From positions 1-43,359 of the IMG/VR virus record IMGVR_UViG_3300045988_045189: a DNA stretch of 43,359 nt; one strand, given 5' to 3'. This document shows, one piece after another, positions 16,347 through 41,338 of the stretch. The first letter of the stretch is position 1; each line of letters opens with the position of its first letter. Source of the DNA: a virus. The position numbers and the translations under genes were made by a program. The notes beneath the pieces were generated by a model that ran no database searches, was not told where the DNA came from, and saw only the letters and a program-made list of their open reading frames with translations.

Positions 16347-17210
16347 ATGAAAAATATGTACCGTTGGCTCGGTCTCCAGCTGTTCGCAGAGGGAGACGGC
16401 GGCACAGCAGCGGGCACCACGGGCGCGGCGGCTGGCACGACTGGCCAGCAGGCTGAACAGAACGCACCCGACGCCGGGGCGCAGCAGCAGGCAGAGCCTG
16501 CAAGAGATCTTGGCAAGGAATTTGACGCGCTCATCAAGGGCGAGTTCAAGGACGTATATGCCAAGCGGGTACAGGATACGGTGACGCGGCGCCTGAAAGG
16601 CCCCAGTGCTGACGCGGAGAAGTTCCGCGCCATGCAGCCGGTGATGCAGATGCTGTCCCAGCGCTATGGCGTGGATGCCGCCGATATCAAGGCGCTGTCT
16701 GCTGCCATCGAGGAGGACAACGCCTTCTATCAGGAGGAGGCGGATCGTCTGGGCATCAGCGTGGATCAGGTGAAAGCCATCCGCAAGACGGAGCGGGAGA
16801 ACCAGCAGCTGAAGGAGCAGCTGGCCGAACGGGAGAACCGCCAGCGGATGGAGCAGAACATCGCCAAATGGTCGCAGGAGGCACAGGCCATCGCGCAGAA
16901 GTATCCGGGACTGGATCTGGAGAAGGAGCTGGGGAACCCGCAGTTCTTCAATGCGCTGATGAACGGGGCCAGCGTGGAGGGCGCTTATTGGGGCCTGTAC
17001 CACGACCAGCTGATTCCGCAGGCCATGCAGTACACCGCTCAGGAGACGGAGCGGAAGCTGGCTGCCAAGATCCAGGCACAGGGCCAGCGCCCCACGGAAA
17101 ACGGTGCGGGCGCCGGTGTGACCATGAAGAGCGATGTGTCGAAGCTCTCCGACAAGGATATGGATGATCTCATCCAACGTGCAAGGAGGGGCGAGAAGAT
17201 CTGCTTCTGA
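16347..17210 (+). CDS. Scaffolding protein with Prp-type N-terminal leader (LGLQLF|AEGD)
   Basis: Position before the major capsid protein. Gln/Glu-rich coiled-coil composition. L27-like LQLFA motif at residues 10-14. Confidence 0.8.
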   Translation: MKNMYRWLGLQLFAEGDGGTAAGTTGAAAGTTGQQAEQNAPDAGAQQQAEPARDLGKEFDALIKGEFKDVYAKRVQDTVTRRLKGPSADAEKFRAMQPVMQMLSQRYGVDAADIKALSAAIEEDNAFYQEEADRLGISVDQVKAIRKTERENQQLKEQLAERENRQRMEQNIAKWSQEAQAIAQKYPGLDLEKELGNPQFFNALMNGASVEGAYWGLYHDQLIPQAMQYTAQETERKLAAKIQAQGQRPTENGAGAGVTMKSDVSKLSDKDMDDLIQRARRGEKICF

Positions 17211-17230: not shown

Positions 17231-18301
17231 ATGAAAACCGTTAAAAACTTTTTTATGATGGCGCTGGACATGCAGCTGTTTGCTGATGTGACCAACACCA
17301 CCGGCTCCAACTCCTCCGGCAACAACCTGTCGGCGGAAATGAAAACCTTCTATGACAAGGTGCTGCTGCGTGAGGCAGGCCCCAATCTGGTGCATAGCCA
17401 GTTCGGCCAGAAGCGCGTCATCCCCAAGGGCAGCGGTAAGACCATTGAGTTCCGCAAGTTCAACCAGCTGCCCAAGGCGCTGACCGCCCTGACGGAAGGT
17501 GTGACCCCCAACGGCGGCGCGCTGGACGTGACCAGCCTGACCGCCACCGTGGCGCAGTACGGCTACTTCGTGCGTGTGTCCGACGTGCTGGATCTGACCG
17601 CCATTGACAATGTGATCGTGGAGGCCACCCAGCTGCTGGGCGCACAGGCGGGCGTGACCATGGATACCGTGGTGCGCAATCAGCTGTCTGCCGGCAACAA
17701 CGTGCTGTTCTGCCCCACCGTGGCCAGCGGCACCGAGACCGCCGTGACGCAGCGCAAGAACATGAACACCACCAGCCAGCTGACCGTGAAGATGATCCAG
17801 AAGGCCGTTGCCACCCTGAAGAAGAACAACGTGCCGACCTTCAACGGCGACTATGTGGCGATCATCCACCCCTATGTGGCCTACGACCTGCAGCGTGACC
17901 CTGAGTGGATCGACGCCCACAAGTATGCCCAGCCGGAGAACCTGTTTACCGGCGAGATCGGCAAGGTGGCCGGTGTGCGCTTCGTGGAATCCACCGAGGC
18001 CAAGGTATGGAAGGACAGCGACTGTCCCCAGAAGTCCGCGGGCAGCGGCAGTGATCCCGCCACCTACTACGGCGTGTTCTCCACGCTGGTGCTGGGCAAG
18101 AATGCCTACGGTGTGACCGAGGTGACGGGCGGCGGCCTCCAGACCATCGTCAAACCTCTCGGCGCCGGTGAAGATCCCCTGAACCAGCGCTCCACCGTGG
18201 GCTGGAAGGGTATCCGCACCGCCAAGATCCTGCTGGAGCAGAACATGGTGCGTATCGAATCCGTTTCCGCTGAGTGGAGCGGCACCGTGGACGCCAACTG
18301 A
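17231..18301 (+). CDS. Major capsid protein (HK97-fold type) with Prp-type leader (DMQLF|ADV)
   Basis: 356 aa, following the scaffold gene. TIEFRKFNQLPKALTALTEGVTPNG is capsid-family-like. MQLFAD lies at 17270..17287. Confidence 0.88.
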   Translation: MKTVKNFFMMALDMQLFADVTNTTGSNSSGNNLSAEMKTFYDKVLLREAGPNLVHSQFGQKRVIPKGSGKTIEFRKFNQLPKALTALTEGVTPNGGALDVTSLTATVAQYGYFVRVSDVLDLTAIDNVIVEATQLLGAQAGVTMDTVVRNQLSAGNNVLFCPTVASGTETAVTQRKNMNTTSQLTVKMIQKAVATLKKNNVPTFNGDYVAIIHPYVAYDLQRDPEWIDAHKYAQPENLFTGEIGKVAGVRFVESTEAKVWKDSDCPQKSAGSGSDPATYYGVFSTLVLGKNAYGVTEVTGGGLQTIVKPLGAGEDPLNQRSTVGWKGIRTAKILLEQNMVRIESVSAEWSGTVDAN

Positions 18302-23562: not shown

Positions 23563-24501
23563 ATGGCATTTTCTTATAAAGATTATCAGGAGAGCGACCG
23601 GGTCAAGAAACTGGCGGAACGGCTTGCACAGCTGGAAGCGCAGAAGCCGGGAGACTGGACAGGCGGACAGTATGGCCAGCAGATGCAGGATGCATTGGAC
23701 GCTATCAGGAACCGGAAGAAGTTCAGCTATGATTTGAACAGCGACGCGCTCTATCAACAGTACAAGGACAAGTATGTGCAGCAGGGCAAGCAGGCCATGC
23801 AGGACACCATGGGGCAGGCGGCGGCACTGACGGGCGGCTATGCCAGCACCTACGGGCAGGCGGTGGGCCAGCAGCAGTACGACGCCTATTTGCAGAATCT
23901 GAACGACGTGGTGCCGGAGCTTTACCAGTTGGCACTGAGCCGGTATCAGATGGAGGGCGACGACCTCAAGACCCAGTACAGCCTGCTGGCGGATCAGTAC
24001 CAGCAGGAATACGGCCAGTATCGGGACAAGGTGGGCGACTGGCAGACGGAGCGGAATTTCCTGTCGGGCCGGTATGATTCGGAACGGAATCTGGACTACG
24101 GCATGTGGGGCGACGCCAGAGACTTTGCCTATACCGATTACCGCAACGGCATTGCGGACGAGCAGTGGCGCAGACAGTATGAGGAATCCGTCCGGCAGTT
24201 CAACGAGCAGATGGCACTTTCCCGTGAGCAATTTGCATGGCAGCAGGCACAGGCACAGGCGGCTGCGGCGGCAAAGAGCAGCGGCGGAGGGAGTTCCAGC
24301 GGCGGCAAGAGCAGCGGGAAGGAGAATTCGGAAAAATATACCTCGTCCACGGCGATGCGGATCATTCACGACACGGAGACCGGCGTTGACCAGTCTTTAC
24401 AGGGGCGGATCAATGCGCTGGCGGCCATGTATGAGGCGGGCAATATCACCAAAAAGCAGTATACCGATTTGGTGTATGCGCTGAGAAACCCCGGCAAGTA
24501 A
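23563..24501 (+). CDS. Gln-rich virion protein (312 aa), possible internal/ejected protein
   Basis: AAGGAGGAAAC ribosome-binding site. Q/Y-rich helical composition and a Ser/Gly linker. Immediately precedes the giant ORF. Confidence 0.7.
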   Translation: MAFSYKDYQESDRVKKLAERLAQLEAQKPGDWTGGQYGQQMQDALDAIRNRKKFSYDLNSDALYQQYKDKYVQQGKQAMQDTMGQAAALTGGYASTYGQAVGQQQYDAYLQNLNDVVPELYQLALSRYQMEGDDLKTQYSLLADQYQQEYGQYRDKVGDWQTERNFLSGRYDSERNLDYGMWGDARDFAYTDYRNGIADEQWRRQYEESVRQFNEQMALSREQFAWQQAQAQAAAAAKSSGGGSSSGGKSSGKENSEKYTSSTAMRIIHDTETGVDQSLQGRINALAAMYEAGNITKKQYTDLVYALRNPGK

Positions 24502-24513
24502 GGAGGCGGTTTT

Positions 24514-27500
24514 ATGGGTTGGCAGGATATCTACAAGAAGAAAATGCAGGAATCGGGCCTTGAGGCTGGCGATATCAATTTTGTTGATGTGGACACCTTC
24601 CATAAGAGGGAGCAGGAGCGGTGGAATGCCGAGGTGTCGTCCGGCAAAGTGCAAGCCGTGACGGCGCCGACGGCTCCTGCTGCGGCGACAAAGAAACGGG
24701 AGAGACAGGTGGTCTCTCCCTACGGGACGTTCCTGGGCGGGTTCTCCTTTGCGGGAGATCGGCAGAAAACCGCCAAGGAGCTGGCGGACGAAAAGGCCCA
24801 GCAGGAGGCGTATATCAAGGAGTACCGGCGGCTGGCGTGGCTTGATCTGGACGATTACCGCACAGAGGTGGAACAGGCTGGAAAAAAGGCACAGGAGAGC
24901 AAAGAACCGTATAATATCCACGCTTTTGGCGCTTACAATCCCCAAAAGTCGGAGGCAGAGCGTACTTACGCCACGATGAAGGCCGACCTGAACAAAGCCG
25001 AGAGCATCCAGTATGATATCAAGGGCCGCGAGGCGCTGGACAATCTGACGGAGGATCAGACCGCTGCATTGGAGGTGCTGACAGACACAACAGGCGTTCC
25101 CGCAGCTGCTGCGCATGTCGATGCCGCGCGGAAACAGGCTGCGCGGGAGGCACTGTTGGCATCTGGATTCTCGGAGGATGAGCTTTCGCAGCTGGTGAAT
25201 TACTATCGAAATATCCCCAAGCGGGAGAAGAACGCGGAGCGGTACGCCAAGGTGCAGGAGATGGCGCGGAATGAGGGCGAGAAGTCGCCTATTGGCGGTA
25301 CGCTGCTGTCGGTTCCGGCCAATCTTCTGAGCGGTGTAGGCGCTATCGACGCGGCGCTGCGGAAGCTGGCCGATCCCAATACGCCCACGGACTACAACGC
25401 CCCGGCCATGCTGCCTTATGCCTACGCCAGCGGCGTGCGGGGCGAGGTGACGAAAAACCTCCAGTATGACCACGGCGATGTGGCCGCGTTTGCGTATGGT
25501 GTGGGTACGTCTATGCTGGACAGCGCGGCCACGGTGGCACTGGCGGCGCTGGGCGTTCCGCCTGCTGCCGCTTCGGCCACACTGGGCGGCGCGGCGGCCA
25601 CCGACGCGATGGTGGCCGCAAAGGATCGTGGTCTGGACGATGACCACGCCATTGCCACCGGTGTGGCGGCGGGTATACTGGAATCTTTCTTTGAGAAGGT
25701 AAGTCTGGAAAGCCTGATCTCCATGAAGCTGCCCAGCGGGACGATGAAACAGCGGATCGTCGGCATGCTGAAGAATACTGCCATTCAGGCGGGCATTGAG
25801 GGCAGCGAGGAAGTGTTCACGGATATTGGCAATCTGTTGGCAGATAAGATCATCAACGGCGACATGACAGATGTGAACCAGCGGATCGCCGTATATATGG
25901 CTGGCGGCATGAGCTATCAGGAAGCGCAGCAGAAGGTCGTGGGCGAGACGATCAAGGACATGGCTGTGGACTTCGGTGCCGGTGCGCTGGCTGGCGGCCT
26001 GATGGGCGGCGGCAATATGGCGGTACAGACCGCCGTACAGGGCCGGTATCAGGATGCCATGCAACAGGTACGGCAGCAGTCCGGCGTGACCGGGGCTTAT
26101 CAGGCAAGCAAGGATGGCCGCACCACCTACAATGACGCCGACGCACAGATCCGTTCTGTGGTAAAGGACGGCAAGGTGCAGCTGGAGAGCGGCGAGACAG
26201 TAGACCCCAAGGACGTGCGCTTCAAGGATCAGCAGACCGCTGACCTCTACGAAGGTACTATCAACACAGCGGAGAACGCCGGGGCGGCGCAGGTGTTTGT
26301 GGATTCCTACACCGGCGGCGACGTGAGCCAGTATCTGCTGGGAATGAGACAGGCATATGAAGCAGGTCGGGCTGGCATCCCCGTGGAAGAAATGACGCAG
26401 GGGACGTTTGCCGACGATCTGAGCGAGGTACAGCGCAGTGCTGCCTATGAGCAGGGGCGGCTGGCGACGGAAGCGGAGTTCCCCACCATGGGCGACATGG
26501 GGCTGGGAGAATCTGGCAGTGCGGCATGGGACAAAGCAGAGAAGATCAACACCACACTGAGCAAGGGCAAGGTGCAGGCTGGCTTTACGGCGCTGTATCA
26601 GGCCGGTTTGCGGCGGGAATCTGCGGTCAACGTAAAGAGCGCGGCGGCCAGCGCACTGCCCCAGAGCGTGCAGACGGCGGCCTATGAGGCGGGCCTTTCC
26701 GACGCGGCGGCCAGCCTTGCACGGGAAAAGGCGGGGCTTACGCTTGTGAGCAGCGCAGGCAGCGAAAGCGGCCTTGTGGACAACGAGCATTCCCGGAAGA
26801 TGGCCAAGGAGCAGGCCGGTACGGCGGCGCTGCTGAACACGCTGGGCAAGAATCTGGGTGTGCGTATCGAGATGGTGGACACGATCTCCGGCGGTAAGGC
26901 CAACGGCGTGTACCTCTCCGGCCGAAACCTCATTCAGATCGCCGCCGACGCGGACAATGCCTTCGGCTTCGTGGCGGCCCATGAGGTGACACACCGCATG
27001 CAGGAGTTGGCGCCGGAGGAGTATCGTGCTTACCGCGATCACGCCATGAGCTACCGCGCACGGGAATCCGGCGAGGAGGGCGCTGCGGCGTATGTGGAGC
27101 GGTATCGGGCTATGGCCGAGGAGGCGGGCGTAAAGCTGACGCAGGAGGAGGCCATGGACGAGATCGCCGCCGACTTCACCCGCGACATGATGGAAAACGG
27201 CAAGCTTTTTGAGGATTTTGCCAAGGAGAACCGCAGCGCCGCGAAGAAGCTGCTAGACGCCCTGAAAGCCTTTATCGCAAAGGTCAAGTCCCTGTTCCGC
27301 AGCAAGGCGGCACAGGACAAGGCCGCACAGAACGCCTACGGCAAGAGCATGGCCGAACTGGAGCAGTGTGTGGCCTTGTGGCAGAAAGCCTATGACGCGG
27401 CGGGAAAACAGGCGCAAAAAGCAAAAACCGCCGCCCGCGAGGGCGACGGTGAGGGACGGTATCAGATCAAATATCCGCAGTACACGGAAACGGATATTAT

Positions 27501-30500
27501 GGATAATTCGGTGGCGCTTCAAAGCATGGATACCATCGGACATTTCACGGGAAACGAACTCGGAGACAGAAGTATCCCCCTCGACAAGAGAGTCAGGGCC
27601 TTTTTCGCGTCGCTCGGCAATAATGTGTACAGTGAACAGTTTGGAGATGTTGCGCTCAGCAAGTCGAGTATCAACTCCGAGTTCAGGCACGGAATAACAC
27701 CGCTTAAAGTCGTTACCTTTGCCGCCGTCCCAAGCGTAATAAAGGACGGTGTAGTCATTTATACGTTGAACAAAAACAGCAGCGGGCTTGAGAGAATTGT
27801 TGTCGCGGCGCCCGTTACTGTTGGGACACCCGCCGAGAAAATGTATGTGGCTGTGATGCTTCAGAGAGACCCGCAGAGCCAGCGGCTGTATCTGCATGAT
27901 GTGGTTACAGAAAAAGAGCTCGATATCAACAGTACCGAACACCTCAAAACCCATAGAGGGCCAGATACTGCTGAATACGAACTCTACACCACAGATATAC
28001 TACGGAACGCACTGAATGTCAAGGGCAAATTTTCCCTGAAAAAGCCATTGGAGGAGACAAAAGACCTGCTGGCGCTGCACAACCTGACAGAAACGAATCT
28101 TCTGGATGCTGTCAGACTGGGCGGGCTTCCGATGCCCTCTATCGCCGTGGTGAAGGGCGACGCGGGGCACAGTGAGTACGGCCCGATCTCCTTCGTTTTC
28201 AGCAAGGACACCATCGACCCGCAGCTGTTCCGCAGCAATAAGGTGTATGGCTATGATGCGTGGACACCCACCGCGCCGCAGATCGAATATGAGGTCAACG
28301 AAAAGGCCGCAGGACGTATTCATGACCTGTTTTACAGAATGCAGCGTGAAAAAGGCCGTGACTTTGTCAATCCGCTGTATTCCGTGGCCAACACGCTGGA
28401 GGATGAACTGAACCGCAAAGGTGGGTTGGAAAAGGTACTGGAGCCTATGCGGGACGATCCGCGTGTGATGAACATCTACCTTGAAGATACCGGACGTGGA
28501 GCAGTAGAAAAAGTGATGCGCCAAAACGTCAGCCGCATGGATGAAGGCCAGCAGGAAATGTCCGAGTTCCTGATCCGCGAATTGGGCGCTGACATTGTGG
28601 ACGGCTTCCGTGCAACCGGCAGCGAGGCTCCCATTGCCGCAAGAAGGCGGTGGTTTGCAGAACACGGCGAAGCGCTGAACGAGGCATTGCGGGAATACTA
28701 TGAAAAGCTGGGGCTGCCTGCGGAAGATGCCGCCGATGTGGTGAACGCTGAGACGAATGCAGCGAAGACAAAATATCTGCTGAATACGCGGAAGTATTTG
28801 AGCGGAAACACAGAGACGGTGACGGAAGAAGTCGATCTGGACGCTACCAATAATGCTATCCGCAAAAAGGTGGACAAGGCTGATTATGACCGCTGGCTGG
28901 ATGAGTTGTTTAAGGGTGTTGTAAAAAATGAGGGCATTTACAACGGTAAGGATTATTACACATCTTCCGGCAACCGCCGCAGCTTCTCTGCGACCCATTA
29001 TGAGATCACACTGGAGAATATTGTAAAGGCAATGAAGCGGGGCGACCAGAAGGGCACCAATACATTCTTTGGCGGACAAGCTATCTGGGGGGTGGCTTCA
29101 AAGGACTATAACTCCATTGATGAGATCAAGGCGGATTCCGGTCGACTGGTAAAAATGACGGAGGAAGAATACAGCGCCATCCGTCAGGAGTATTCGGCAC
29201 GGTTGGCAGAGTTGGCCAATGAGATCAAAGACCCCGCTGCCCGGAATGACTTTATTGCTTCGGACGATGCCGCTACGGCCATTGTGGAAACCCTGCGCAC
29301 AAAGCGTACCGCAGCAGCCATCGACAAGGAGCTGCGTACATATCCGACGCTGCGTATCAGGCCGGACACGGCGGGTAAGGTGCTGCAACTATTTGAAGAT
29401 ATTTCCAATATGCCCACAGGGTACTTTGAGGCAAAGCCGCAGCGTGCTGTGGGGTTTGACGAAGTGCTGGCCGCTGTGATCCCGGACGATACAAGCGCAA
29501 ATGCGAGGGCGGCACTGGCTCAGGCTGGCGTGAAAACGATTGAGTACAAGAGCGGAGATGAACAATCCCGCACAGATGCAGTAAACAGCGTGGAAGGCGC
29601 ACGCTTCCAGCTGAAATCCGCCACGGAGCTGGAGCGCGAGGTACGGGAGCTGAAGAAGGAGCGGCGGGCGCTGGAGAACCGGAACAAGGCACTCACTGAG
29701 CGCGTGGCCAAGTGGCGCGGGGAGCTGCGGCGCACCGAGACACCCAGCGTGCGCCCCGATGACGTGAAGAAGCTGGGGCGGCGGTTCCTCGATGAGTACG
29801 GTAGCAGCACCGACTATCGCGCCATTGAGAGCGACATGACGGCGCTGGGCAAGGCACTGATGGCCGACGATGTGTCCATGGACACCCTGCGGCCCCACGC
29901 CCGTGCGGCGGCGGAGAAGATCATCGACGGGGTGCTGGTGCAGGCGGAGAGCGGCGGGGAGCTGCTGGCCATCCGCGACCACCTGAAAAACGTCACGCTG
30001 CGGTATGCCGATGACGGCTCCATTCCGGATTTCAAGGACTGGCGCAGAGCCAACCGGGGGACGCTGAAGATCAGCGACAAGAGCGGCCTTGACGTGGATG
30101 TGGCGTACAGTGAGCTGACGGAGATGTTCGGCGAGGGCTATTTCCCCAGCACCATCATCCACCCCGGCGACCAGCTGCTGCGCATGAGCGAGGTGCTGGA
30201 CAACGTGGGCCGCATTTATGAGAATCCTTTTGACGGATTCCGTGACGCGGCGGTGACGGAGCTTTCCGACCTGCTGATCGACGGCATGATCGGCGAGGAT
30301 GTGCGGCAGAGCAACCCCACCTTTGCCGACCGGCAGGCACTGGAGCTTCAGGAGACCAAGGCACGGCTGACGCAGATGCTCATTAAGACCCGCGAGGGAC
30401 GTGACCGGCAGGTGGAGCGGATGCGGCGGCACTATCAGGAGCAGACCAAGGCCGGACGGGAGCGGCGCAATGCCACCGCCCTGCGGGCCAAGATCGCGCG

Positions 30501-33500
30501 GCATACCGCCGACCTGTCCCGGAAGCTGCTGACCCCCACGGACAAGCAGCACATTCCGGAGAAGCTGCGGCAGAGCGTGGCGGCGCTGCTGGGCAGCATC
30601 AATCAGGAGAGCGCGTACAGCATCAAGCCCGGCACGGAACACTATGTGATTCGTAAGGACGGCATGCGCGGCGGCCTTACGGGTGAGCATGTGGCGAACG
30701 GCGAGGGATTGCCCACGGCGCGGACACAGGCGGCCATTGCCCTGAAAAACGCCTATGACGAAATCCTCAAGAGCGGCGAAGCGCTGGTAATTGACCCCGA
30801 CCTGCTGGGCAGCGAGGGCGCGGGGCTGCTGGATCAGGTGATGGCGTTCGGCAACAAGCGCATTGCCGACATGAACAGCGAGGAGCTGACCACCGTATGG
30901 CAGGCGGTGCGGGCCATTGAGCAGAGCGTGTCCACCTTCAACAAGAATCTGGCGATTGAGCGCTATGCCGGGGTGCAGGAGCTGGCGGAAGCACTGCGGG
31001 ATGGCACGTTCTCCCGGAAGCGGGCCAACCGCAAGCTGGCGCTGGATCTCTATGACCCGTATACGTTCTTCTACGCCTACGGCGAGGCGGGCATGCAGGT
31101 ATACCGGACGCTGCGCAACGCGCAGGACAAGCAGAATACCATGCTGAAAACCATTCAGGCAGCGGCGGAGAAGTTCATGGACAAGGAGGTCTACAAGAAC
31201 CGTCTGGAGCGCCATGCGTTCTTCGTGGGCGAGGACGGCCAGCGGCTGGTGCTGACCACGGGGCAGATCATGAACCTCTACAATCTGGTGGGACGCGGCG
31301 AACAGGCGGTGCATCACCTGACGGTGGGCGGCGTGGTGCAGCCTGCCATTAAGAAAAACGGCAAACAGGCGGCCATTGAGCGGGGCACGGAGAACATCCG
31401 CCTGACGGTGGACGACCTGACCGCTATCACCGGCACGCTGACCGCAGCACAGCGGAGGGTGGCGGAGGGCTTCCAGAAGATCGCCAGCGGCGACCTTGCC
31501 AAGTGGGGCAACGAGGCCAGCATGACCGTGTATGGCTATCAGAAGTTCACGGAGGGGAAATACTGGCCCATCAAGGCGGCGCAGGAGGGCACCACCCAGA
31601 ACTCCGAGAAGGGCGCGGACGTGGCCCGCGAGATCAAGAACATGGGCAGCGCCAAGACTCTGACCCCCAACGCCAGCAACGCGCTGGAGATGGGGGACAT
31701 GTACGACGTGTTCGCCCAGAACGCCAGCGACATGATCCAGTACAGCACGCTGCTGGCCCCCATGGAGGACATCAACCGGCTATATAACTACCGCTACCGC
31801 GACGCCAAGGGCAACCTGACCGGCAAGAACGTGAAGCACGTTTTGACGGATGTGTACGGCGAGGCGGCGCAAAAATACTGGCGAAATCTGATGCGGGACG
31901 TGCAGAACGGCATGGGCAGCACCGGCACCGACACCACCCGATTCATTGAAAAGATGGTGGGCGGCGTGAAGGGCGCCAGCGTGGGCTTTAACCTACGGGT
32001 GGTGGCCCAGCAGCCGACGGCCTATGTCCGGGCGGCGGCCATTCTTGACCCATCTACGATGGCAAAGGGCATTGTGGGCGGCGCGACGGAGGGCAACGGC
32101 TGGGAAAAGGCCAAGAAGTACGCGCCCATTGCCAGCATCAAGGACACGGCGGGCTTTGACCAGAGCAGCCGGTACAGCATCGCCCAGAACGTCTATGGCG
32201 GTGAGGGCGGCGTGATGGACAAGCTGAACGACTGGAGCGGCTGGGCCGCCGGTAAGGCGGACGCCGTGACGTGGGGCGCTATCTGGAACGCCTGCGAGTG
32301 GACGGTGGTGAACGAGGGCGGCTATGAGAAAGGCAGTGACGCTTTCTTCTCCCGCGTGGCCCAGGTGTTCACAGAGGTCATTGACCAGTCTCAGGTGGTG
32401 GACGGCATCATGCAGCGGACGCAGATCATGCGGGACGCCAACGGCCTGACCAAGCAGGCCACGGCCTTTATGGGTGAGCCGCTGAAAACACTGAACATGT
32501 TCATGCGCGCCTATGACGCATGGCGGTTTGAGCAGAATATCCCGAAGCGCAGCGCCGCCATGAAGAAAATGACCCGCACCATCGGGGCCGTGCTGGTGAC
32601 GGATGTGGTGAACGCGCTGGTGCAGTCCCTTGTGGACGCCGCCCGTGACGACGATAAGGACAAGGGGTACTGGGCGCGGTACTGGGAGAAGCTGACCGGC
32701 GTCACCGGTGATAAGGAGAAGGACACCTTCCTGAATGTGCTGCTGGGCAGCAACCTCTGGGACAACGCTGACCCGCTGGGGCGGATTCCCTACGCGAAGG
32801 ACATTAAGTCGCTGATGCAGGGCTTTACGGTAAGCCGGATGGACGCCGACGCGGCGGGAGACTTCATTACAGCGGCGGAGGGCTTCGCCAAGAGTTTGCA
32901 GGGCGAGGGCAAGAAAACCCCGTTGTATGCTGCCAAGCAGCTGCTGACGGCGGGCAGTAAGATCTTCGGTGTCTCCGTAGCCAATGTGGGCCGTGACGTG
33001 TGGGCCATTGCCCGAAGCGTGGCGCAGGAGAGCGGCAATGTCCGCATGATGTACGAAATGGAGCGGGCCATCTGGCGGCTTGCGCCGGACGCGGGCAACA
33101 ACACTCGGTATTATAAACTGCTGTATATGGCCATGGAGCAGGACAAGGAAGCGTACCAGTATATCTATGACGATATGAAGAAGCGGGGGTACAGCGACGG
33201 ACAGCTCCAGAAGGGCATCAAGTCCGTTATTCAGGATTCCGGCGCGTCCGACACCGACATGCGCAAGCAGCTGGAGGATATCGGGTACAGCGAAGATGAA
33301 GCGCAGGTAATCGTCAGCAAGTGGGCCTTCAAGGAGAAGTACGGTTATGCCTACAACGAGAAGAGAGACGCATTTGTCGAGGGTGCTATTAACCGGCAGC
33401 AGCTGATCAATGAGATGGTCAGCATTGACGGTAAGACCCGCGAAGAGGCGGAAGCATATGTGACGCAGCTGCAATGCGAGGTCGATACCGGCATCAGCTA

Positions 33501-33915
33501 CGATGATCTTCGCGGCGCTTACAGTGCGGGCCGTATCCGCTACGATCAGGCGGTTTCCTACCTGAAACGGTATGGCGGCAAGGACGATGAATCCGCCACC
33601 AAGGCCGTTGAAAGATGGAAATTCACCGGAGACAGCGACGAGTACGACGATATTTCGACGGAGGCAGTGGAAAAGTATAACGAATACTGCGCCAGCACGG
33701 GTATGTCGGAGGACACCTACTACAAAGCATGGAGCGTCCTTCACAGCATGACCGGCGAGGACTACGACGGAGACGGCAAGAACGACGCTTACTCCAAGAT
33801 GGATAAGCGGCTGGAGTACATCGGCTCCCTGAATATCTCTTACGACCAGATGTTTGCATTGGCGCTGGCATCGGGTATCAGTGAAAAGCGGATCAACGAA
33901 CGGGCACCGTGGTAA
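24514..33915 (+). CDS. Giant 3,133-aa virion-module protein with HExxH metallopeptidase motif (polyvalent-protein-like)
   Basis: Uninterrupted ORF after TAAGGAGG. HEVTH at 26980..26994 in the context NAFGFVAAHEVTHRMQELAPEEY. Gly/Ala-rich hydrophobic segments, coiled coils and C-terminal helical repeats. Confidence 0.9.
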   Translation: MGWQDIYKKKMQESGLEAGDINFVDVDTFHKREQERWNAEVSSGKVQAVTAPTAPAAATKKRERQVVSPYGTFLGGFSFAGDRQKTAKELADEKAQQEAYIKEYRRLAWLDLDDYRTEVEQAGKKAQESKEPYNIHAFGAYNPQKSEAERTYATMKADLNKAESIQYDIKGREALDNLTEDQTAALEVLTDTTGVPAAAAHVDAARKQAAREALLASGFSEDELSQLVNYYRNIPKREKNAERYAKVQEMARNEGEKSPIGGTLLSVPANLLSGVGAIDAALRKLADPNTPTDYNAPAMLPYAYASGVRGEVTKNLQYDHGDVAAFAYGVGTSMLDSAATVALAALGVPPAAASATLGGAAATDAMVAAKDRGLDDDHAIATGVAAGILESFFEKVSLESLISMKLPSGTMKQRIVGMLKNTAIQAGIEGSEEVFTDIGNLLADKIINGDMTDVNQRIAVYMAGGMSYQEAQQKVVGETIKDMAVDFGAGALAGGLMGGGNMAVQTAVQGRYQDAMQQVRQQSGVTGAYQASKDGRTTYNDADAQIRSVVKDGKVQLESGETVDPKDVRFKDQQTADLYEGTINTAENAGAAQVFVDSYTGGDVSQYLLGMRQAYEAGRAGIPVEEMTQGTFADDLSEVQRSAAYEQGRLATEAEFPTMGDMGLGESGSAAWDKAEKINTTLSKGKVQAGFTALYQAGLRRESAVNVKSAAASALPQSVQTAAYEAGLSDAAASLAREKAGLTLVSSAGSESGLVDNEHSRKMAKEQAGTAALLNTLGKNLGVRIEMVDTISGGKANGVYLSGRNLIQIAADADNAFGFVAAHEVTHRMQELAPEEYRAYRDHAMSYRARESGEEGAAAYVERYRAMAEEAGVKLTQEEAMDEIAADFTRDMMENGKLFEDFAKENRSAAKKLLDALKAFIAKVKSLFRSKAAQDKAAQNAYGKSMAELEQCVALWQKAYDAAGKQAQKAKTAAREGDGEGRYQIKYPQYTETDIMDNSVALQSMDTIGHFTGNELGDRSIPLDKRVRAFFASLGNNVYSEQFGDVALSKSSINSEFRHGITPLKVVTFAAVPSVIKDGVVIYTLNKNSSGLERIVVAAPVTVGTPAEKMYVAVMLQRDPQSQRLYLHDVVTEKELDINSTEHLKTHRGPDTAEYELYTTDILRNALNVKGKFSLKKPLEETKDLLALHNLTETNLLDAVRLGGLPMPSIAVVKGDAGHSEYGPISFVFSKDTIDPQLFRSNKVYGYDAWTPTAPQIEYEVNEKAAGRIHDLFYRMQREKGRDFVNPLYSVANTLEDELNRKGGLEKVLEPMRDDPRVMNIYLEDTGRGAVEKVMRQNVSRMDEGQQEMSEFLIRELGADIVDGFRATGSEAPIAARRRWFAEHGEALNEALREYYEKLGLPAEDAADVVNAETNAAKTKYLLNTRKYLSGNTETVTEEVDLDATNNAIRKKVDKADYDRWLDELFKGVVKNEGIYNGKDYYTSSGNRRSFSATHYEITLENIVKAMKRGDQKGTNTFFGGQAIWGVASKDYNSIDEIKADSGRLVKMTEEEYSAIRQEYSARLAELANEIKDPAARNDFIASDDAATAIVETLRTKRTAAAIDKELRTYPTLRIRPDTAGKVLQLFEDISNMPTGYFEAKPQRAVGFDEVLAAVIPDDTSANARAALAQAGVKTIEYKSGDEQSRTDAVNSVEGARFQLKSATELEREVRELKKERRALENRNKALTERVAKWRGELRRTETPSVRPDDVKKLGRRFLDEYGSSTDYRAIESDMTALGKALMADDVSMDTLRPHARAAAEKIIDGVLVQAESGGELLAIRDHLKNVTLRYADDGSIPDFKDWRRANRGTLKISDKSGLDVDVAYSELTEMFGEGYFPSTIIHPGDQLLRMSEVLDNVGRIYENPFDGFRDAAVTELSDLLIDGMIGEDVRQSNPTFADRQALELQETKARLTQMLIKTREGRDRQVERMRRHYQEQTKAGRERRNATALRAKIARHTADLSRKLLTPTDKQHIPEKLRQSVAALLGSINQESAYSIKPGTEHYVIRKDGMRGGLTGEHVANGEGLPTARTQAAIALKNAYDEILKSGEALVIDPDLLGSEGAGLLDQVMAFGNKRIADMNSEELTTVWQAVRAIEQSVSTFNKNLAIERYAGVQELAEALRDGTFSRKRANRKLALDLYDPYTFFYAYGEAGMQVYRTLRNAQDKQNTMLKTIQAAAEKFMDKEVYKNRLERHAFFVGEDGQRLVLTTGQIMNLYNLVGRGEQAVHHLTVGGVVQPAIKKNGKQAAIERGTENIRLTVDDLTAITGTLTAAQRRVAEGFQKIASGDLAKWGNEASMTVYGYQKFTEGKYWPIKAAQEGTTQNSEKGADVAREIKNMGSAKTLTPNASNALEMGDMYDVFAQNASDMIQYSTLLAPMEDINRLYNYRYRDAKGNLTGKNVKHVLTDVYGEAAQKYWRNLMRDVQNGMGSTGTDTTRFIEKMVGGVKGASVGFNLRVVAQQPTAYVRAAAILDPSTMAKGIVGGATEGNGWEKAKKYAPIASIKDTAGFDQSSRYSIAQNVYGGEGGVMDKLNDWSGWAAGKADAVTWGAIWNACEWTVVNEGGYEKGSDAFFSRVAQVFTEVIDQSQVVDGIMQRTQIMRDANGLTKQATAFMGEPLKTLNMFMRAYDAWRFEQNIPKRSAAMKKMTRTIGAVLVTDVVNALVQSLVDAARDDDKDKGYWARYWEKLTGVTGDKEKDTFLNVLLGSNLWDNADPLGRIPYAKDIKSLMQGFTVSRMDADAAGDFITAAEGFAKSLQGEGKKTPLYAAKQLLTAGSKIFGVSVANVGRDVWAIARSVAQESGNVRMMYEMERAIWRLAPDAGNNTRYYKLLYMAMEQDKEAYQYIYDDMKKRGYSDGQLQKGIKSVIQDSGASDTDMRKQLEDIGYSEDEAQVIVSKWAFKEKYGYAYNEKRDAFVEGAINRQQLINEMVSIDGKTREEAEAYVTQLQCEVDTGISYDDLRGAYSAGRIRYDQAVSYLKRYGGKDDESATKAVERWKFTGDSDEYDDISTEAVEKYNEYCASTGMSEDTYYKAWSVLHSMTGEDYDGDGKNDAYSKMDKRLEYIGSLNISYDQMFALALASGISEKRINERAPW

Positions 33916-33916
33916 C

Positions 33917-33958
33917 ACGGAAGCGGCGGTGGGATAGAGTTTCCACCGCCGCTTCTGT
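33917..33958 (+). terminator. Strong hairpin terminator after the giant ORF
   Basis: GAAGCGGCGGTGG / CCACCGCCGCTTC (13 bp plus extensions), followed by a T-rich stretch. Confidence 0.7.
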
Positions 33959-36525: not shown

Positions 36526-36758
36526 GATATGCAGTTATCACGGAAGGGACTGTGACCAACGTCATTACTCTGTGGGAAACCAACGCCGGGGATTTCCCCG
36601 GTGCGGTGGCGCTCCATGACCGCCCGGTGGGCATCGGGGACAGTTATCAGGATGGCAAGTTCTACCGGGACGGCGAAGAACTCCTGACCGCCCAGGAAGA
36701 AATTGAGCAGTACAAGGCGGCTTTGCAGACGCTGGGGGTGGTGACGGATGAGAACTGA
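36522..36758 (+). CDS. Hypothetical tail-associated protein (78 aa)
   Basis: ATGA coupling within the fibre module. Confidence 0.65.
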   Translation: MRYAVITEGTVTNVITLWETNAGDFPGAVALHDRPVGIGDSYQDGKFYRDGEELLTAQEEIEQYKAALQTLGVVTDEN

Positions 36759-37155
36759 CATCATGGCGCAGGCCCAGGCCATTCGGGCCAGTATGGATGC
36801 CGCAGCGGTGGTGCTGACGGACGCGCAGGCGGCGGCAGCGCCGCTGCTCTACCGCCCGTGGGACGGCGAGGGGGTGGCCTATGTCGCGGGAGACCGGCGG
36901 CTGTATGGGGGATACGTCTACAAGTGCCTACAGGCCCACACATCGCAGTCAGGCTGGAACCCGGCGGACGCGCCCAGCCTGTGGGCACAGGTGCTGATCC
37001 CCGACCCAGCCGTCATCCCCGCGTGGCAGCAGCCGGACAGCACCAACCCCTACATGACAGGCGACAAGGTGACACACGGCGGCAAAACATGGCGCAGCAC
37101 CTGTGACAACAACGTGTGGGAGCCGGGTGTATATGGATGGGAGGAGGTCACATGA
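36748..37155 (+). CDS. Carbohydrate-binding protein with two CBM5/12-like repeats
   Basis: YVAGDRRLYGGYVYKCLQAHTSQSGWNPADAPSLW and YMTGDKVTHGGKTWRSTCDNNVWEPG match the aromatic CBM5/12 pattern. Confidence 0.65.
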   Translation: MRTDIMAQAQAIRASMDAAAVVLTDAQAAAAPLLYRPWDGEGVAYVAGDRRLYGGYVYKCLQAHTSQSGWNPADAPSLWAQVLIPDPAVIPAWQQPDSTNPYMTGDKVTHGGKTWRSTCDNNVWEPGVYGWEEVT

Positions 37156-37634: not shown

Positions 37635-39050
37635 ATGCGCTACGGCATTGACATTTCGGACGCGCAGGGCGTGTTCGATTGGGATAAAGCCGAGGGTGTT
37701 ACCTTCGCCGTCCTGAAGGGCGGCGGGGGTAACAACGGCCTTTATACCAACAAGCAGTTCCAGCGGAACTATGAGGAGTGCGTCAAGCGCGGCATTGACG
37801 TGGGCTGCTACTGGTTCAGCAAGGCGCTGACCGTGGAACAGGCAGAGCAGGAGGCGGCGTATTTCTTCGACAACTGCCTTGCCGGAAAGAAGTTCACCCT
37901 GCCGGTGTACATGGACGTGGAACACAAGGAGATGCTGGCGCTGGGCAAGGACGCGCTGACGGCCATTGTGCTGGCCTTCTGCGAGGCACTGGAGCAGCGC
38001 GGCGCATGGGTGGGCATCTACTCCTCCCGCGCCATGTTCGAGGGCTATATGCACGACGAGCAGCTTTTCAGGTATGCCCACTGGGTGGCCGAGTGGAACG
38101 AGACGTGCCGTTATGGCCGGGACTTCGGCCTGTGGCAGTTCGGCGGCGAAACCAACAAGCTGCGGGACACCAAGGTGGCCGATGTGGTGTGTGACCAGGA
38201 TTACATGCTGACGGACTACCCCGTGATGCTGGCCATGAACGGGAAGAACGATTTCAGGGAGGTCGAGAAAATGACGGAACAGCAACTGAGACAGAATGTG
38301 GTAGACACGATTCTGGGCTGGGTGGGTCTTAACGAGGCGGACGGCAGCCACAAGAAGATCATCGACATTTATAACAGCCACAAGCCGCTGGCGAGGGGCT
38401 ACGCACTGAAATACACCGACGCATGGTGCGCCGGTACGGTCAGCGCCGTGGCTATCGTCAACAACATCACGGACATTATGCCCACGGAGGTGGGCGTGGG
38501 GAAGATGATCGACCTCTACAAAGCGCTGGGCCGCTGGATGGAGCGGGACGACTACAAACCCCAGATCGGCGATGTGGTGGTGTATGCGTGGAGCGACAAC
38601 GGCGTAGGCGAGTGTACCACCGGCGCGGATCATGTGGGCATCGTCACAAAGGTGTCCGGCACGTCCTTCTGGGTGACGGAGGGTAACTACCGCGACAGCG
38701 TAAAGACGCGGCCCATGCAGGTCAACGGGCGGTACATTCGCGGCTTCGGATTGCCGGACTATGCAAAGGCGGCTACCGGTGTAGCGTCCGCCATGCCGGA
38801 GACCGCCACGGAAGATGTGTTTGTGTCCCCCAAGCTTCGCCAGCTGAAAAAGGGCGTCAAGGATGGCAACGACGTGAAGGCGCTGCAAACGCTGCTGATC
38901 GAGAGCGGCTATTCATGCGGTGCGCGAGGTGCGGACAGAAGCTTCGGCAGCGCCACCGACGCGGCGGTGCGTAAGTACCAGAGTGACCACGGCCTGACCG
39001 CCGACGGTGTGGTCGGCGCGGTGACGTGGGGTAAGCTGCTGGGCGCGTGA
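37635..39050 (+). CDS. Three-domain endolysin: GH25 muramidase + CHAP/NlpC-P60-type cysteine peptidase + PG_binding_1
   Basis: YGIDISDAQGVFDWDK (GH25). DAWCAGTVS...DHVGIV...TEGNY (Cys/His peptidase). C-terminal DVKALQTLL...GSATDAAVRKYQSDHGLTADGVVGAVTWGKL. Confidence 0.9.
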   Translation: MRYGIDISDAQGVFDWDKAEGVTFAVLKGGGGNNGLYTNKQFQRNYEECVKRGIDVGCYWFSKALTVEQAEQEAAYFFDNCLAGKKFTLPVYMDVEHKEMLALGKDALTAIVLAFCEALEQRGAWVGIYSSRAMFEGYMHDEQLFRYAHWVAEWNETCRYGRDFGLWQFGGETNKLRDTKVADVVCDQDYMLTDYPVMLAMNGKNDFREVEKMTEQQLRQNVVDTILGWVGLNEADGSHKKIIDIYNSHKPLARGYALKYTDAWCAGTVSAVAIVNNITDIMPTEVGVGKMIDLYKALGRWMERDDYKPQIGDVVVYAWSDNGVGECTTGADHVGIVTKVSGTSFWVTEGNYRDSVKTRPMQVNGRYIRGFGLPDYAKAATGVASAMPETATEDVFVSPKLRQLKKGVKDGNDVKALQTLLIESGYSCGARGADRSFGSATDAAVRKYQSDHGLTADGVVGAVTWGKLLGA

Positions 39051-39231: not shown

Positions 39232-39269
39232 AAAAAATCCTCGTAACCATGCGGGTTACGAGGATTTTT
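39232..39269. terminator. Bidirectional intrinsic terminator (A6-TCCTCGTAACC ...GGTTACGAGGA-T5)
   Basis: 12-bp core stem plus A/T extensions. Follows the tRNA-like CCA and overlaps the integrase stop codon. Confidence 0.85.
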
Positions 39270-40371
39270 CGTTTTCTGACTTTTTGGCATTTGTTAGTAA
39301 CGTGTTAGTAACCGCGCTTATCAGCGTTTCCGGGTCAAGGTGCGTGTAGACGTTGGCGGTGGTGGAATAATTGGCATGACCGAGGACTTTTTGAAGAATT
39401 TCAGGGGCAAGACCTTCCTTAACTGCGCGGGTGGCGTAAGTGTGCCGCGTGGCATGGGGGGTCTTTTTTTCTATCTTGAGCTTTTCCAGTAGCGGGTAGT
39501 AGTCACGCCGACGGAAGTTGGCGGGAACTTTCTGCCCTTCGTAGCCTGACAGGAGCAGATCGCCATCGGCCTTCTGGGCGAAGTATTCAAAGTACGGCTT
39601 TCCCTCCGGCCTGATGGGAATAATGCGGTTCCGGCCGGCTTCCGTTTTCTCTCCGCCCACCACATAATCCTTGTGGTAGTCTTTCAACGGCAAACTGAAC
39701 AGTTCGCCGATGCGCATGCCGGTGGCAAGGAGCATGAGGACGATCTTGGCGGCATCGCTGCCGTCCTTCTCCAGCTTTTTGATCTCGGCGGCGGTGAAAA
39801 TCTCTTTTTCCTTTTTGACGTTTTCCGGCAGCTTCACAAACCGGGCAAAGTTGGTGGTGCAAATCTCCTCGCGCACGGCCCATGTGGACATCTGGGTGAT
39901 GAGCTGCTTGTATTTGTTCACCGTGGAATGGCTTTTATCCATGTACTTATCAAGGACGGCTTGAAAGTCTGCGGTGCGGAGGCTGCGGAACTTTCGGTCG
40001 TGCAGCGGCTCGAATACGTCATAGGCGCGGTCATAGGATTCAACGCCCTTTTCGCCGATCTCGCGGTAGTGTTCTACCTTCCATTCCTCAAAGACTTCCT
40101 TGAAGGTCATATTATACCGTTCGGTAAGGCTCTTACCGGAGAGCTTTTCCAGTGCCGCCAGCGCGTCGGTTTTCTTTTCATAGTACCCGATGATAACACG
40201 GTTCTTGGAGGCTGCCCACGGCCTTTTGCGGCGGCCTGAGAGCTTATAGACGCTTCCGGCACCGTTGGGACGCTTCAACGCCTTGCGGGGCGCTGCGGTC
40301 TGCTTTTTCCCGCACCACGGGCAAAAGGCAGACGAATCCGGCATTTCCTGTTTGCATGACTTGCAAAGCAT
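39256..40371 (-). CDS. int: Tyrosine integrase with N-terminal zinc ribbon and AP2-like arm-binding domain
   Basis: ATG 40371 follows GGAAAGGA. CKSC...CPWC; GSVYKLSGRRKRPWAA; catalytic ATGMRIGEL, HATRHTYAT, LGHANYSTTANVYTH. Confidence 0.92.
   Translation of the reverse strand: MLCKSCKQEMPDSSAFCPWCGKKQTAAPRKALKRPNGAGSVYKLSGRRKRPWAASKNRVIIGYYEKKTDALAALEKLSGKSLTERYNMTFKEVFEEWKVEHYREIGEKGVESYDRAYDVFEPLHDRKFRSLRTADFQAVLDKYMDKSHSTVNKYKQLITQMSTWAVREEICTTNFARFVKLPENVKKEKEIFTAAEIKKLEKDGSDAAKIVLMLLATGMRIGELFSLPLKDYHKDYVVGGEKTEAGRNRIIPIRPEGKPYFEYFAQKADGDLLLSGYEGQKVPANFRRRDYYPLLEKLKIEKKTPHATRHTYATRAVKEGLAPEILQKVLGHANYSTTANVYTHLDPETLISAVTNTLLTNAKKSENEKSS
39290..39314 (+). repeat. Arm-type repeat block P': TTT GTTAGTAAC GT GTTAGTAAC CG (inside the integrase 3' end)
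   Basis: Direct repeat of 39052..39076. Encodes VTNTLLTN on the minus strand. Confidence 0.85.
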
Positions 40372-40445
40372 TTGACAATCCTTTCCGGGTATGCTACCAT
40401 AAAAGGGTAGACTACTCCCTGTGGTAAGGCGGATATGTTCTACAC

Positions 40446-40488
40446 GACTGCTCCGGTGTGCTAGACCGGGGCAGTCTTTTTTGATTTT
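40446..40488 (+). terminator. Strong plus-strand intrinsic terminator between the NYN gene and int
   Basis: GACTGCTCCGGT gtgctag ACCGGGGCAGTC (12 bp, one G.U) followed by TTTTTTGATTTT. There is no plus-strand gene upstream. Confidence 0.75.
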
Positions 40489-41158
40489 ATGGGCGTTTCG
40501 CGTTGTAGGGATTGCCGCAGCTTCTTCGCCCGTCAATATGCTCCATCAGGGCTTTTTCGGGGCTAATTTCCATTCCCATTGTGTCCAGAATGACATCGAG
40601 CCCTTCGCGGCGGGCGAGTTTTGCGGCGGGGACAAAATCACTGTCTCCCGCAATAAGGACGATTTGATCGACCTGCTTTTTGTAGGCAAGAGATGCAATA
40701 TCGATGCCCAGCTTCATGTCGACGCCTTTTTGCTGAATCGTCGGGACAAAATGCTTTAATTCAAGCGTATCTTTTGTCAATGTGCCGGAACAGATTTTTT
40801 TCACAGCGTCATAGTTTAGCGTATAGACGGCATTAGCAACATCCAGTTCTCCCAGCCGCAGGGCCACCTTACGGCGCTGGCGCAGCTCAGAGAGAAACTT
40901 GGTCATCCATTTGTATTCGGCGGAAGCACGCATATTGACGATTTTCTCGGTGAGCGGATGATACATCTGCTTGTCTACAGGCTGACAGTCATAATAAAAG
41001 AGACGGTATAGCTCGTGTTCTTGCTTGTGTTCCTTCAGGTGCCGCCAACAGTATGTAATGAGGGCGTCGGCGGCTTCTTTGGGCTCATGTTCGCCCCACA
41101 AGTGCTTTGCACGTTTGCGGTAAAAACCGCCGTCAACAAGAATCGCTGTTTTTGACAT
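40487..41158 (-). CDS. NYN-domain (LabA/DUF88-like, PIN-related) putative ribonuclease, 223 aa
   Basis: ATG 41158 follows GGAGAG. Motifs AILVDGGF, QKGVDMKLGIDIASLA and IVLIAGDSDFVPAAKLARREG. Confidence 0.8.
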   Translation of the reverse strand: MSKTAILVDGGFYRKRAKHLWGEHEPKEAADALITYCWRHLKEHKQEHELYRLFYYDCQPVDKQMYHPLTEKIVNMRASAEYKWMTKFLSELRQRRKVALRLGELDVANAVYTLNYDAVKKICSGTLTKDTLELKHFVPTIQQKGVDMKLGIDIASLAYKKQVDQIVLIAGDSDFVPAAKLARREGLDVILDTMGMEISPEKALMEHIDGRRSCGNPYNAKRP

Positions 41159-41279
41159 AGTTCCCACTCTCCGTATAAAATCTAAAGCCCTTAGAACGGG
41201 CACTCCCCTGATCGTGGGGGACCTATTCCAAGGGCTTGTTAGGCACAACAGGCGGAACGGCGGTGCGTTCTTTGTTGTA
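41159..41279 (-). promoter_or_regulatory. Structured ~120-nt 5' leader of the NYN gene (two hairpins; the second is terminator-like)
   Basis: Hairpin 1 spans 41245-41278 (ACAACA..GAACG/CGTTC..TGTTGT). Hairpin 2 spans 41185-41237 (12-bp outer stem AAGCCCTTGGAA/TTCTAAGGGCTT with an inner CCCC/GGGG stem), followed on the RNA by UUUAGAUUUUAU and then the ribosome-binding site. Confidence 0.55.
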
Positions 41280-41285
41280 CGTTAA

Positions 41286-41314: not shown

Positions 41315-41338
41315 CCCGGTTTTATGATATTTGTACAA

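Follow-up and report, generated by a model that had tools for sequence, protein, structure and literature searches.

The giant open reading frame (ORF) at positions 24514-33915 of IMG/VR virus record IMGVR_UViG_3300045988_045189, whose full 43,359 nucleotides (nt) are referred to here as the window, encodes a polyvalent protein in which exchangeable cassettes are held between conserved N- and C-terminal regions and bordered by a shared pentapeptide, [RK][FY][QS][IL]K. This border peptide suggests, at the level of sequence, that the protein is cut into separate effectors, and the reading that we consider probable is that of a polyvalent effector polyprotein, probably carried in the virion, with its own zincin-like domain as the likeliest enzyme to cut the junctions. 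An earlier note on this DNA had proposed an ejected polyvalent effector with an embedded peptidase motif, and the effector interpretation is strengthened here by a PBECR5 domain, by cassette swapping among relatives and by conservation of the HExxH motif. The parts of the protein on which the argument rests are the following, in window coordinates.

24514-33915, + strand: giant ORF, ATG start, 3,133 amino acids (aa), 345 kDa, pI 5.4.
24514-27456, + strand: conserved N-terminal region, aa 1-981, common to all 120 close homologues.
27457-27471, + strand: junction 1, RYQIK, aa 982-986.
27472-28026, + strand: cassette M8, aa 987-1171, 185 aa, rare (7 proteins among the homologues analysed).
28027-28041, + strand: junction 2, KFSLK, aa 1172-1176.
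28042-29601, + strand: cassette M4, aa 1177-1696, 520 aa, a PBECR5 RNase-like domain with a co-travelling extension of ~330 aa.
29602-29616, + strand: junction 3, RFQLK, aa 1697-1701.
29617-33333, + strand: conserved C-terminal region, aa 1702-2940, most conserved core at aa ~1945-2890, mostly helical.

Comparison with related proteins reveals that the centre is the part which is exchanged. A whole-protein homologue search returned 722 proteins; aa 1 to ~990 and aa ~1700-2940 are found in every one of the best 120, the centre in only ~14. In close homologues this centre spans 226-992 residues and falls into 16 classes, and by splitting the proteins at the recurrent peptide, ~10 cassette families and 21 architectures were delimited among 121 proteins, with one to four cassettes per protein and the architecture M8-M4 in this phage. 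Module swapping, for which the earlier note had suggested comparing related phages, was observed directly: the central ~700 residues are swapped for ART-PolyVal, MuF_C or LPD3-like modules in proteins that are otherwise 70-97% identical, and the exchange is recent, because backbones 97% identical in the C-terminal half differ in their first cassette. A third homologue search with a diverse profile returned 120 members, all of one 49%-identity clade, and added little depth. A Logan-assembled relative whose giant gene is split into six ORFs (L008, 3497-13598) was considered as a natural separation of the modules and rejected, since its frameshifts lie inside domains and not at junctions; that gene is a sequencing-error or pseudogene copy.

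The cassettes were characterized by Pfam and profile comparison. M4 is assigned to PBECR5, M5 and M9 to ART-PolyVal (E = 4e-19 and 9e-13), and M6 and M7 to MuF_C, the PBECR-type domain of Mu F (E = 1e-17 and 4e-10), with a weak MuF_C match for M1, weak LPD3 matches for M2 and M13, and nothing for M3. Grouping by hhalign unites M6 and M7 with M1 and, separately, M2 with M13. M8 has no Pfam assignment and only a faint MuF_C/PBECR-like signal, its best hhalign result against the other cassette families being 8% probability, to the MuF_C-type M6. PBECR5 (PF18814) is matched at aa 1172-1365 with 191.4 bits against a gathering threshold of 25 (E = 3e-56), so an enzymatic domain of the polyvalent-protein kind is present, and the earlier statement that most residues match nothing nameable is correct only in part. 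Across 142 distinct PBECR5 copies, H1219, S1209, T1251 and T1253 are near-invariant, and the His of LALHNL (aa 1186-1191) falls below the conservation cut-off.

The combination of MuF_C, PBECR and ART modules with cassette polymorphism recalls polymorphic toxins, and the phage is temperate, as indicated by a tyrosine integrase (39256-40536, - strand); both features would suit interbacterial toxins of a prophage-borne MuF-type polymorphic system that target competitors rather than aid infection. This appears decidedly unlikely to us, given that the cassettes are internal to one ORF with no immunity-like gene after them, that the gene lies within the late virion operon, and that the Phage_Mu_F N-terminal domain has no Pfam match in the giant protein, the MuF_C-type cassettes being confined to relatives.

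The border pentapeptide occurs three times in the giant protein, every time exactly at a cassette border, where shuffled sequences give an expectation of 0.02, and a six-frame scan of the window returns no copy besides those three. The 121 close proteins hold 312 junctions in 84 distinct contexts. Among 150 distant representatives (36-60% identical in the C-terminal region), a strict regular expression, by which variants are under-counted, finds the motif 174 times where 6.6 occurrences would be expected, mostly in the canonical forms RFSLK, RYSLK and KFSLK, of which RFSLK is the commonest. In these representatives, roughly half of the borders of full-length M4, M5 and M3 modules have the strict motif, and lineages without it carry variants in the same position, such as RYALN, AYSIK or RHSIK.

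The two halves of the junction are inherited with different modules. Residues 1 and 2 co-vary with the upstream tail (KVNG is always followed by KF, and SNNI by RY), residues 3 to 5 co-vary with the downstream head (QLK with SATE; SLK with KPLE and AYSD), and the cross-combinations are mixed. Such half co-variation indicates that each cassette carries [QS][IL]K...[RK][FY], with the exchange point between the aromatic residue and Q/S, and by analogy this behaviour resembles that of protease half-sites in viral polyproteins. Since the window's three junctions share no common DNA repeat and use different codons, conservation acts at the peptide level. Hydrophilic, flexible tails precede each junction, and a full-text literature search for the pentapeptide returned unrelated papers only.

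A different role for the pentapeptides, as sliding-clamp-binding motifs that tether the modules to the host beta-clamp, would leave both their strict border placement and the half-site inheritance unexplained. The third position of the APIM consensus is [LIVA], unlike the Q found at two junctions of this phage and the S found at its third. RFSLK has the very sequence of an APIM variant peptide shown to bind the bacterial beta-clamp and, on overexpression, to inhibit growth (PMC7261172); this is probably a five-residue coincidence, and we find the clamp role barely credible.

The candidate for the junction-cutting enzyme lies in the conserved N-terminal region, 5' of the cassettes.

26746-27348, + strand: zincin-like domain, about aa 745-945, with three strands, the helix of the HExxH motif and a helix that carries the Glu.
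26980-26994, + strand: HEVTH (H823, E824, H827), aa 823-827.
27160-27162, + strand: E883 in MDEIAAD, candidate third metal ligand, kept in 127 of 129 domain copies.

The HEVTH that the earlier note had located at 26980-26994 stands in the context quoted there and is the sole HExxH of the protein, the chance expectation being 0.026 per shuffled protein (P = 0.026). All 126 close homologues covering the site have the motif (126/126), and in 129 aligned copies, from relatives down to ~36% identity, the H, E, H and downstream Glu are each retained in 127-128 while few other columns are conserved, which bears out the conservation on which the earlier proposal had depended. With an iterated local hidden Markov model, 119 of the 150 representatives were seen to have the domain, and many of the other 31 resemble N-terminally truncated fragments. 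In an AlphaFold2 model of aa 640-985 (pLDDT 76; the alignments behind our structure predictions were shallow, with 44 and 21 sequences), three strands are followed by the HExxH helix and then by further helices, one of which bears E883, and this strand-helix-helix order is the one expected of a gluzincin. These features point to a conserved zincin-like domain that is probably catalytic and, by family profile, lies outside PF18818. PF18818 gave no match with the whole protein, with 450-aa windows (E up to 5) or with ten diverse domain copies (E up to 1), so the domain is not of the MPTase-PolyVal type that the earlier note had mentioned, though the HExxH and the downstream Glu are kept. A homologue search with the zincin region alone returned 14 proteins, mostly truncated and without Pfam labels. 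One lineage, exemplified by HEIGMHRLMQLAP, has one extra residue between the His pair (HExxxH). In some relatives (P0043, P0170, P0205, P0228, P0257, P0272, P0277 and P0282), a second, divergent zincin-like cassette of the HEAFH[FL]WK or HEITHVMRQ type is located 3' of the constant one.

A second protease and its likely sites are encoded further 5' in the window, the slash marking the cut.

15951-16283, + strand: Prp-like cysteine protease, PF04327, E = 8e-14, His20, Cys32, GHA...VVCAA, directly 3' of the portal gene.
16374-16388, + strand: L27-type Prp site LQLFA (LGLQLFA) at the N-terminus of the scaffold, MKNMYRWLGLQLFA/EG.
17270-17284, + strand: L27-type Prp site MQLFA at the N-terminus of the major capsid protein, ...ALDMQLFA/DV.

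With the L27-type cleavage motif taken from PMC9405229, both the scaffold and the major capsid protein have [LM]Q[LF]F[AS], the giant protein lacks it, and head maturation probably proceeds by the phage-borne Prp and not by a classical prohead protease. In a rival reading, phage or host Prp cuts the junctions as well during head maturation, and the HExxH domain is aimed, for example, at a host protein or a cell-wall peptide. The position of the Prp homologue 3' of the portal and the L27-type starts of scaffold and capsid speak for such a role, and a cut after the aromatic residue would place F/Y at P1, S at P1' in the manner of F/A, and Lys at P3' as in L27. The junctions, however, have R/K at P2 and G/A/I at P3 instead of L/F and Q, the giant protein has no L27-type site, and Prp enzymes are highly specific for their cognate L27 motif (PMC9405229), so we regard processing by Prp as unlikely.

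In the polyprotein reading that we favour, the giant protein would be synthesized late with the virion proteins and then packaged, and would enter the next host cell alongside the DNA. The chain would then be severed at its junctions, the likeliest bond being the one between the aromatic residue and Q/S and the likeliest enzyme the protein's own zincin-like domain. Cuts at these bonds (aa 983/984, 1173/1174 and 1698/1699) would yield pieces of about 105, 21, 58 and 160 kDa. Once released, the effectors may hit host RNA or, in relatives, ADP-ribosylate host targets instead, with the predicted outcome that defence is blunted or the cell is taken over. Production with the virion and passage to the next host are suggested by the gene position, by the analogy with phage Ab9 described below and by what is known of polyvalent proteins with PBECR, MuF and ART domains; cleavage at [RK][FY]/[QS][IL]K fits because a peptidase-like domain lies 5' of the cassettes, the tails are flexible and the sites behave as half-sites. 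We infer packaging, ejection, a channel role and self-processing from the gene position and the junction motif, and the protease identity and effector targets are likewise predictions. The stronger claim, that the family is a true phage polyprotein system in which a new built-in zincin cuts [RK][FY]/[QS][IL]K and the cassettes bring their own half-sites, is one that we hold tentatively, as possible rather than probable; if true, it would amount to plug-and-play anti-host delivery, where any recombined cassette is still released and the cut site can be read from the sequence.

Several observations weigh against the reading that we favour. The half-site co-variation could come merely from the joint positions of viable recombinants. 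The zincin-like domain lies under every Pfam threshold (the top match is M64 at E = 0.0036, and Zn_peptidase, M48 and eCIS_core score lower), and a Foldseek comparison of the aa 640-985 model with the PDB gives no match at E <= 0.001, only non-significant helical bundles. About 17 of the 129 domain copies have the HExxxH spacing, which is unusual for a zincin helix. The hydrophobicity of aa 260-510 is insufficient for a transmembrane-helix call, and the phage Prp could be the junction-processing enzyme instead. Furthermore, Iyer, Burroughs, Anand, de Souza and Aravind 2017 (PMC5512222) report that the coliphage N4 virion RNA polymerase (vRNAP), which by their account has an MPTase domain, is packaged unprocessed, so a peptidase motif is no proof of cleavage.

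These points lead to an alternative in which the polyvalent carrier, like N4 vRNAP, acts as a single uncleaved chain and the pentapeptide is a linker, a cap or a viable recombination joint. N4 vRNAP, ArdC and TraC1 are all reported as MPTase-bearing and transferred full-length (PMC5512222), the zincin fold is without Foldseek confirmation, and the motif is degenerate in some lineages. Nevertheless, an uncut chain seems somewhat doubtful, given that the same border peptide stands on modules whose folds are unrelated (ART, BECR and LPD3-like ones as well as the C-terminal region), that the junction DNA differs and recombination homology is therefore no explanation for the conservation, that the half-sites co-vary as at polyprotein cleavage sites, and that the metal ligands are near-invariant.

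The C-terminal region is taken to be the carrier or delivery part of the polyvalent protein, and it defines a family abundant in human-gut metagenomes: an exhaustive HMMER search with aa 1690-2889 matched 4,038 clusters (50% identity) at E <= 1e-3, with 2,829 at E <= 1e-30. The best 150 matches are mostly proteins of 2,000-4,200 residues, besides a few shorter fragments; where the protein is full-length, the matching part sits close to its C-terminus. Near-invariant residues number 114, including K2344-F2345, Q2499-Q-P-T and D2583...W2587...W2591-N as well as Q2627-V-V-D, E2655-P and R2711-D-D-D, and PHROG 22978 (function unknown) covers the same part. The AlphaFold2 model of aa 1990-2890 (pLDDT 74, pTM 0.69) is mostly helical and has no Foldseek match in the PDB; it matches 77 predicted viral structures at E <= 1e-3 (best 3.5e-60). 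The best-scoring of these are C-terminal pieces of giant proteins, and in the top 50 about half are unnamed, many of the named ones being labelled nuclease, MuF_C, PolyVal ART or LPD. A BFVD match to a 'structural protein' of Tenacibaculum phage Gundel_1 was considered as evidence for virion location and discarded as too weak (TM 0.28).

Further features delimit the gene and describe the composition of its product.

24500-24506, + strand: ribosome-binding site AAGGAGG, 7 nt 5' of the ATG.
25291-26043, + strand: Gly/Ala-rich, mildly hydrophobic segments (Kyte-Doolittle), aa 260-510.
29617-29742, + strand: coiled-coil-like helix at the start of the C-terminal region, aa 1702-1743.
33334-33912, + strand: variable C-terminal tail, aa 2941-3133, aligning in about half of the close homologues.
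33917-33958, + strand: perfect hairpin of 18 bp and dG -35.6 kcal/mol, 3' of the stop codon, with a weak U-tract.

Much of the earlier description of the gene was confirmed. Its 3,133 codons run from the ATG without a break as a single ORF of 9,402 nt, which makes up 21.7% of the window (earlier given as about 22% of the genome) and has its own strong ribosome-binding site. The strong terminator that had been placed after it stands only in part, for the hairpin is stable (z = -8.2 against shuffled sequences), whereas the U-tract is weak (UGUUAUGCUCUUA) and a consensus terminator scan left the site unflagged. The Gly/Ala-rich hydrophobic segments at 25.29-26.04 kb are present, their hydrophobicity being mild (19-residue Kyte-Doolittle means of 1.35-1.5, under typical transmembrane values), as is the coiled coil at ~29.62-29.74 kb, for which Pfam coiled-coil matches are weak. 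The degenerate helical repeats noted at the C-terminus did not exceed the chance level when the sequence was compared with itself under BLOSUM: the top pair of 16-mers reached a score of 31, with shuffled sequences giving a mean of 26.5 +/- 3.7 and a maximum of 42. An NCBIfam search gave no match for any segment of the giant protein, and PDB sequence and profile searches gave nothing significant for it. A GGLMGGGN segment (aa ~480-530, window ~25950-26100) shows a weak family-profile match to PDB macrodomain proteins (O-acetyl-ADP-ribose deacetylase; E = 0.012), likely due to the glycine run.

The giant ORF forms the end of the virion gene block. On the + strand, the gene order is DNA methyltransferase, large terminase (TerL), portal, Prp-like cysteine protease, scaffold-like protein and major capsid protein, then two small ORFs, a match to PHROG 511 'internal virion protein', a 241-aa ORF and a tail protein (DUF859 and Gp10_C). 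The Gln-rich ORF of 312 aa stands next, 5' of the giant ORF, and 3' of the latter follow a collagen-like fibre, proteins of Gly-rich and CBM5/12 type, a holin-like ORF and, last, the GH25-CHAP endolysin. The neighbours are as the earlier note had described them, the 5' ORF (23563-24501) containing 12.5% Gln and the 3' ORF having five G-X-Y runs and tail-fibre PHROG matches. Family scans of the window proteins detected no tail tube, sheath, tape-measure or tail-chaperone genes, in agreement with the earlier picture of a phage without tube and tape measure.

This neighbourhood bears on the simplest structural reading, that the protein is a tail component (tape measure, tail needle or fibre) whose enzymatic motifs are incidental. 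The gene does lie among tail genes, its Gly/Ala-rich hydrophobic segments and coiled coil are tape-measure-like, and the Gln-rich ORF 5' of it has a weak tape-measure PHROG match (E = 2.5e-4). Against this, the giant protein has no significant tape-measure or fibre family match of the kind that the earlier note had named as a counter-indication, toxin-type modules make up its middle, and no tail tube or chaperone genes accompany it. Moreover, close, near-identical relatives have versions of anything between 2,509 and 3,317 aa, which is a poor fit to a tape-measure ruler, and we judge this reading very improbable.

The phage is temperate and podovirus-like, and belongs to those of Oscillospiraceae / gut Clostridia. 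A genome collection scan found related gene copies, truncated there, in metagenome-assembled genomes (MAGs) of Oscillospiraceae and Clostridiales, and the relatives are prophages, because copies occur in MAGs and on contigs up to 297 kb. Among the few loci of relatives whose context was looked at, a 49%-identical relative is the last gene in the virion module of a prophage, 5' of holin and amidase genes. The contig of that relative (P0140; L007, 780-5753 and 21163-21615) has a virion module with two collagen-like genes, a reverse-transcriptase-like gene adjoining a DUF6273 gene, possibly a diversity-generating retroelement, and a Tad2-like (anti-Thoeris) gene directly 3' of the giant gene. The right end of the window (39256-43359, - strand) has a G+C content of 47-52% against ~60% elsewhere, encodes, besides the integrase, proteins with an NYN domain (40487-41248) and a KTSC domain (41879-42280), and has the appearance of the prophage's lysogeny or accessory arm. 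The portal ORF as listed (window 13953-14100) has a GTG start and a 148-nt overlap with the terminase ORF, and the true start is probably at the MMEEKEV methionines, ~48 codons downstream. Between the fibre and lysis genes there is a small CBM5/12 protein (36748-37155), and the endolysin (37635-39050) has GH25, CHAP and PG_binding_1 domains.

The protein backbone was found in no cultured phage of the 2025 collection, a megablast search of 50,697 phage records with the ORF as query gave nothing, and tblastn against phage genomes gave only faecal-contig fragments and the PBECR5 module in two cultured phages. Acinetobacter phage Ab9 encodes a 2,839-aa protein with GNAT, PBECR5 and one HExxH directly after its internal virion proteins (L006, 13372-21891), and gp68 of Bacteroides phage BF1-TP2 is a 3,633-aa protein with InPase, ART-PolyVal, PBECR5 and LPD38 (L005, 820-11721). 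Both share the PBECR5 module, with no junction motif and, by sequence, no C-terminal region. These giant polyvalent proteins are unannotated, belong to phages of Gram-negative hosts and could serve as experimental models.

Polyvalent proteins were described by Iyer et al., who also predicted their processing by zincins and inferred virion delivery of PBECR and MuF fusions (PMC5512222). The protein described here agrees with that class in combining multiple conflict-type domains in one giant chain with a zincin-type motif in a virion-gene neighbourhood, and in having mosaic orthologues, as does Helicobacter jhp1044 (PMC5512222). Of the at least two enzymatic or conflict domains by which the class is recognized, PBECR5, the HExxH...E domain and M8 are found in this protein and ART-PolyVal and MuF_C in orthologues, and the phage gene adjoins virion genes, between tail protein and tail fibre. 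It differs in that PF18818 is absent, in that ~980-aa N-terminal and ~1,200-aa C-terminal regions frame the cassettes, and in the fixed pentapeptide on every cassette border; the word 'linker' is absent from PMC5512222, and no junction motif is met in the portions of it used here.

Among phages of similar hosts, prophages phi1 and phi4 of Clostridium clostridioforme LM41 (PMC11318856) likewise come from gut Clostridia and have one ORF of ~8 kb that takes up ~20% of the genome and is likened, in passing, to polyvalent-protein domains; that paper gives no architecture, motif or peptidase analysis, and the likeness to the present protein is one of size and description. The N4 vRNAP (gp50, ~3,500 aa) is also a giant protein of a short-tailed phage, one that travels in the capsid and is released into the host cell, whereas the protein studied here has an exchangeable middle and no RNA polymerase match, neither by family in the whole protein nor by PDB sequence or fold in the C-terminal core. 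T4 Alt and internal proteins, P1 DarB/DdrB and the MuF/SPP1 gp7 fusions are head-packed, DNA-co-injected effectors, some of them processed by a protease before or after packaging (PMC5512222). They differ in being single effectors with known head targeting, while no MuF N-domain or capsid-targeting sequence was recognized in the giant protein. Prp cleavage of L27 and of the phage 80alpha capsid and scaffold (PMC9405229, PMC5744158) has its counterpart here in the Prp homologue and in the L27-type scaffold and capsid sites, the giant protein differing in having no L27-type site and in its junction residues at P2 and P3.

Polyvalent proteins are predicted to be a major route by which phages inject anti-defence and takeover enzymes, and this family offers a testable answer to how one chain could give rise to several active enzymes, through a border peptide, a candidate protease and a second candidate, Prp. 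The border motif would allow automatic delimitation of modules in thousands of giant proteins, including M8 and M3, which have no fold by name, and would yield a catalogue of the cargo that Oscillospiraceae phages bring against their hosts.

In viral polyproteins, and at the polymorphic-toxin junction motifs VENN of CdiA and DPxGL of Rhs, a short peptide likewise stands between a constant carrier and variable modules. The likeness lies in a short conserved peptide whose half-sites are owned by the flanking modules; the difference is that there is no homology, that the modules here stand in series in a gene of the phage virion operon, and that cleavage is a prediction. While large ORFs in prophages of Clostridia (PMC11318856) and mosaic polyvalent orthologues (PMC5512222) are already known, three features appear to be new: a standard border peptide that is inherited by halves, a family of peptidase-like domains distinct from PF18818, and the size of the C-terminal family.

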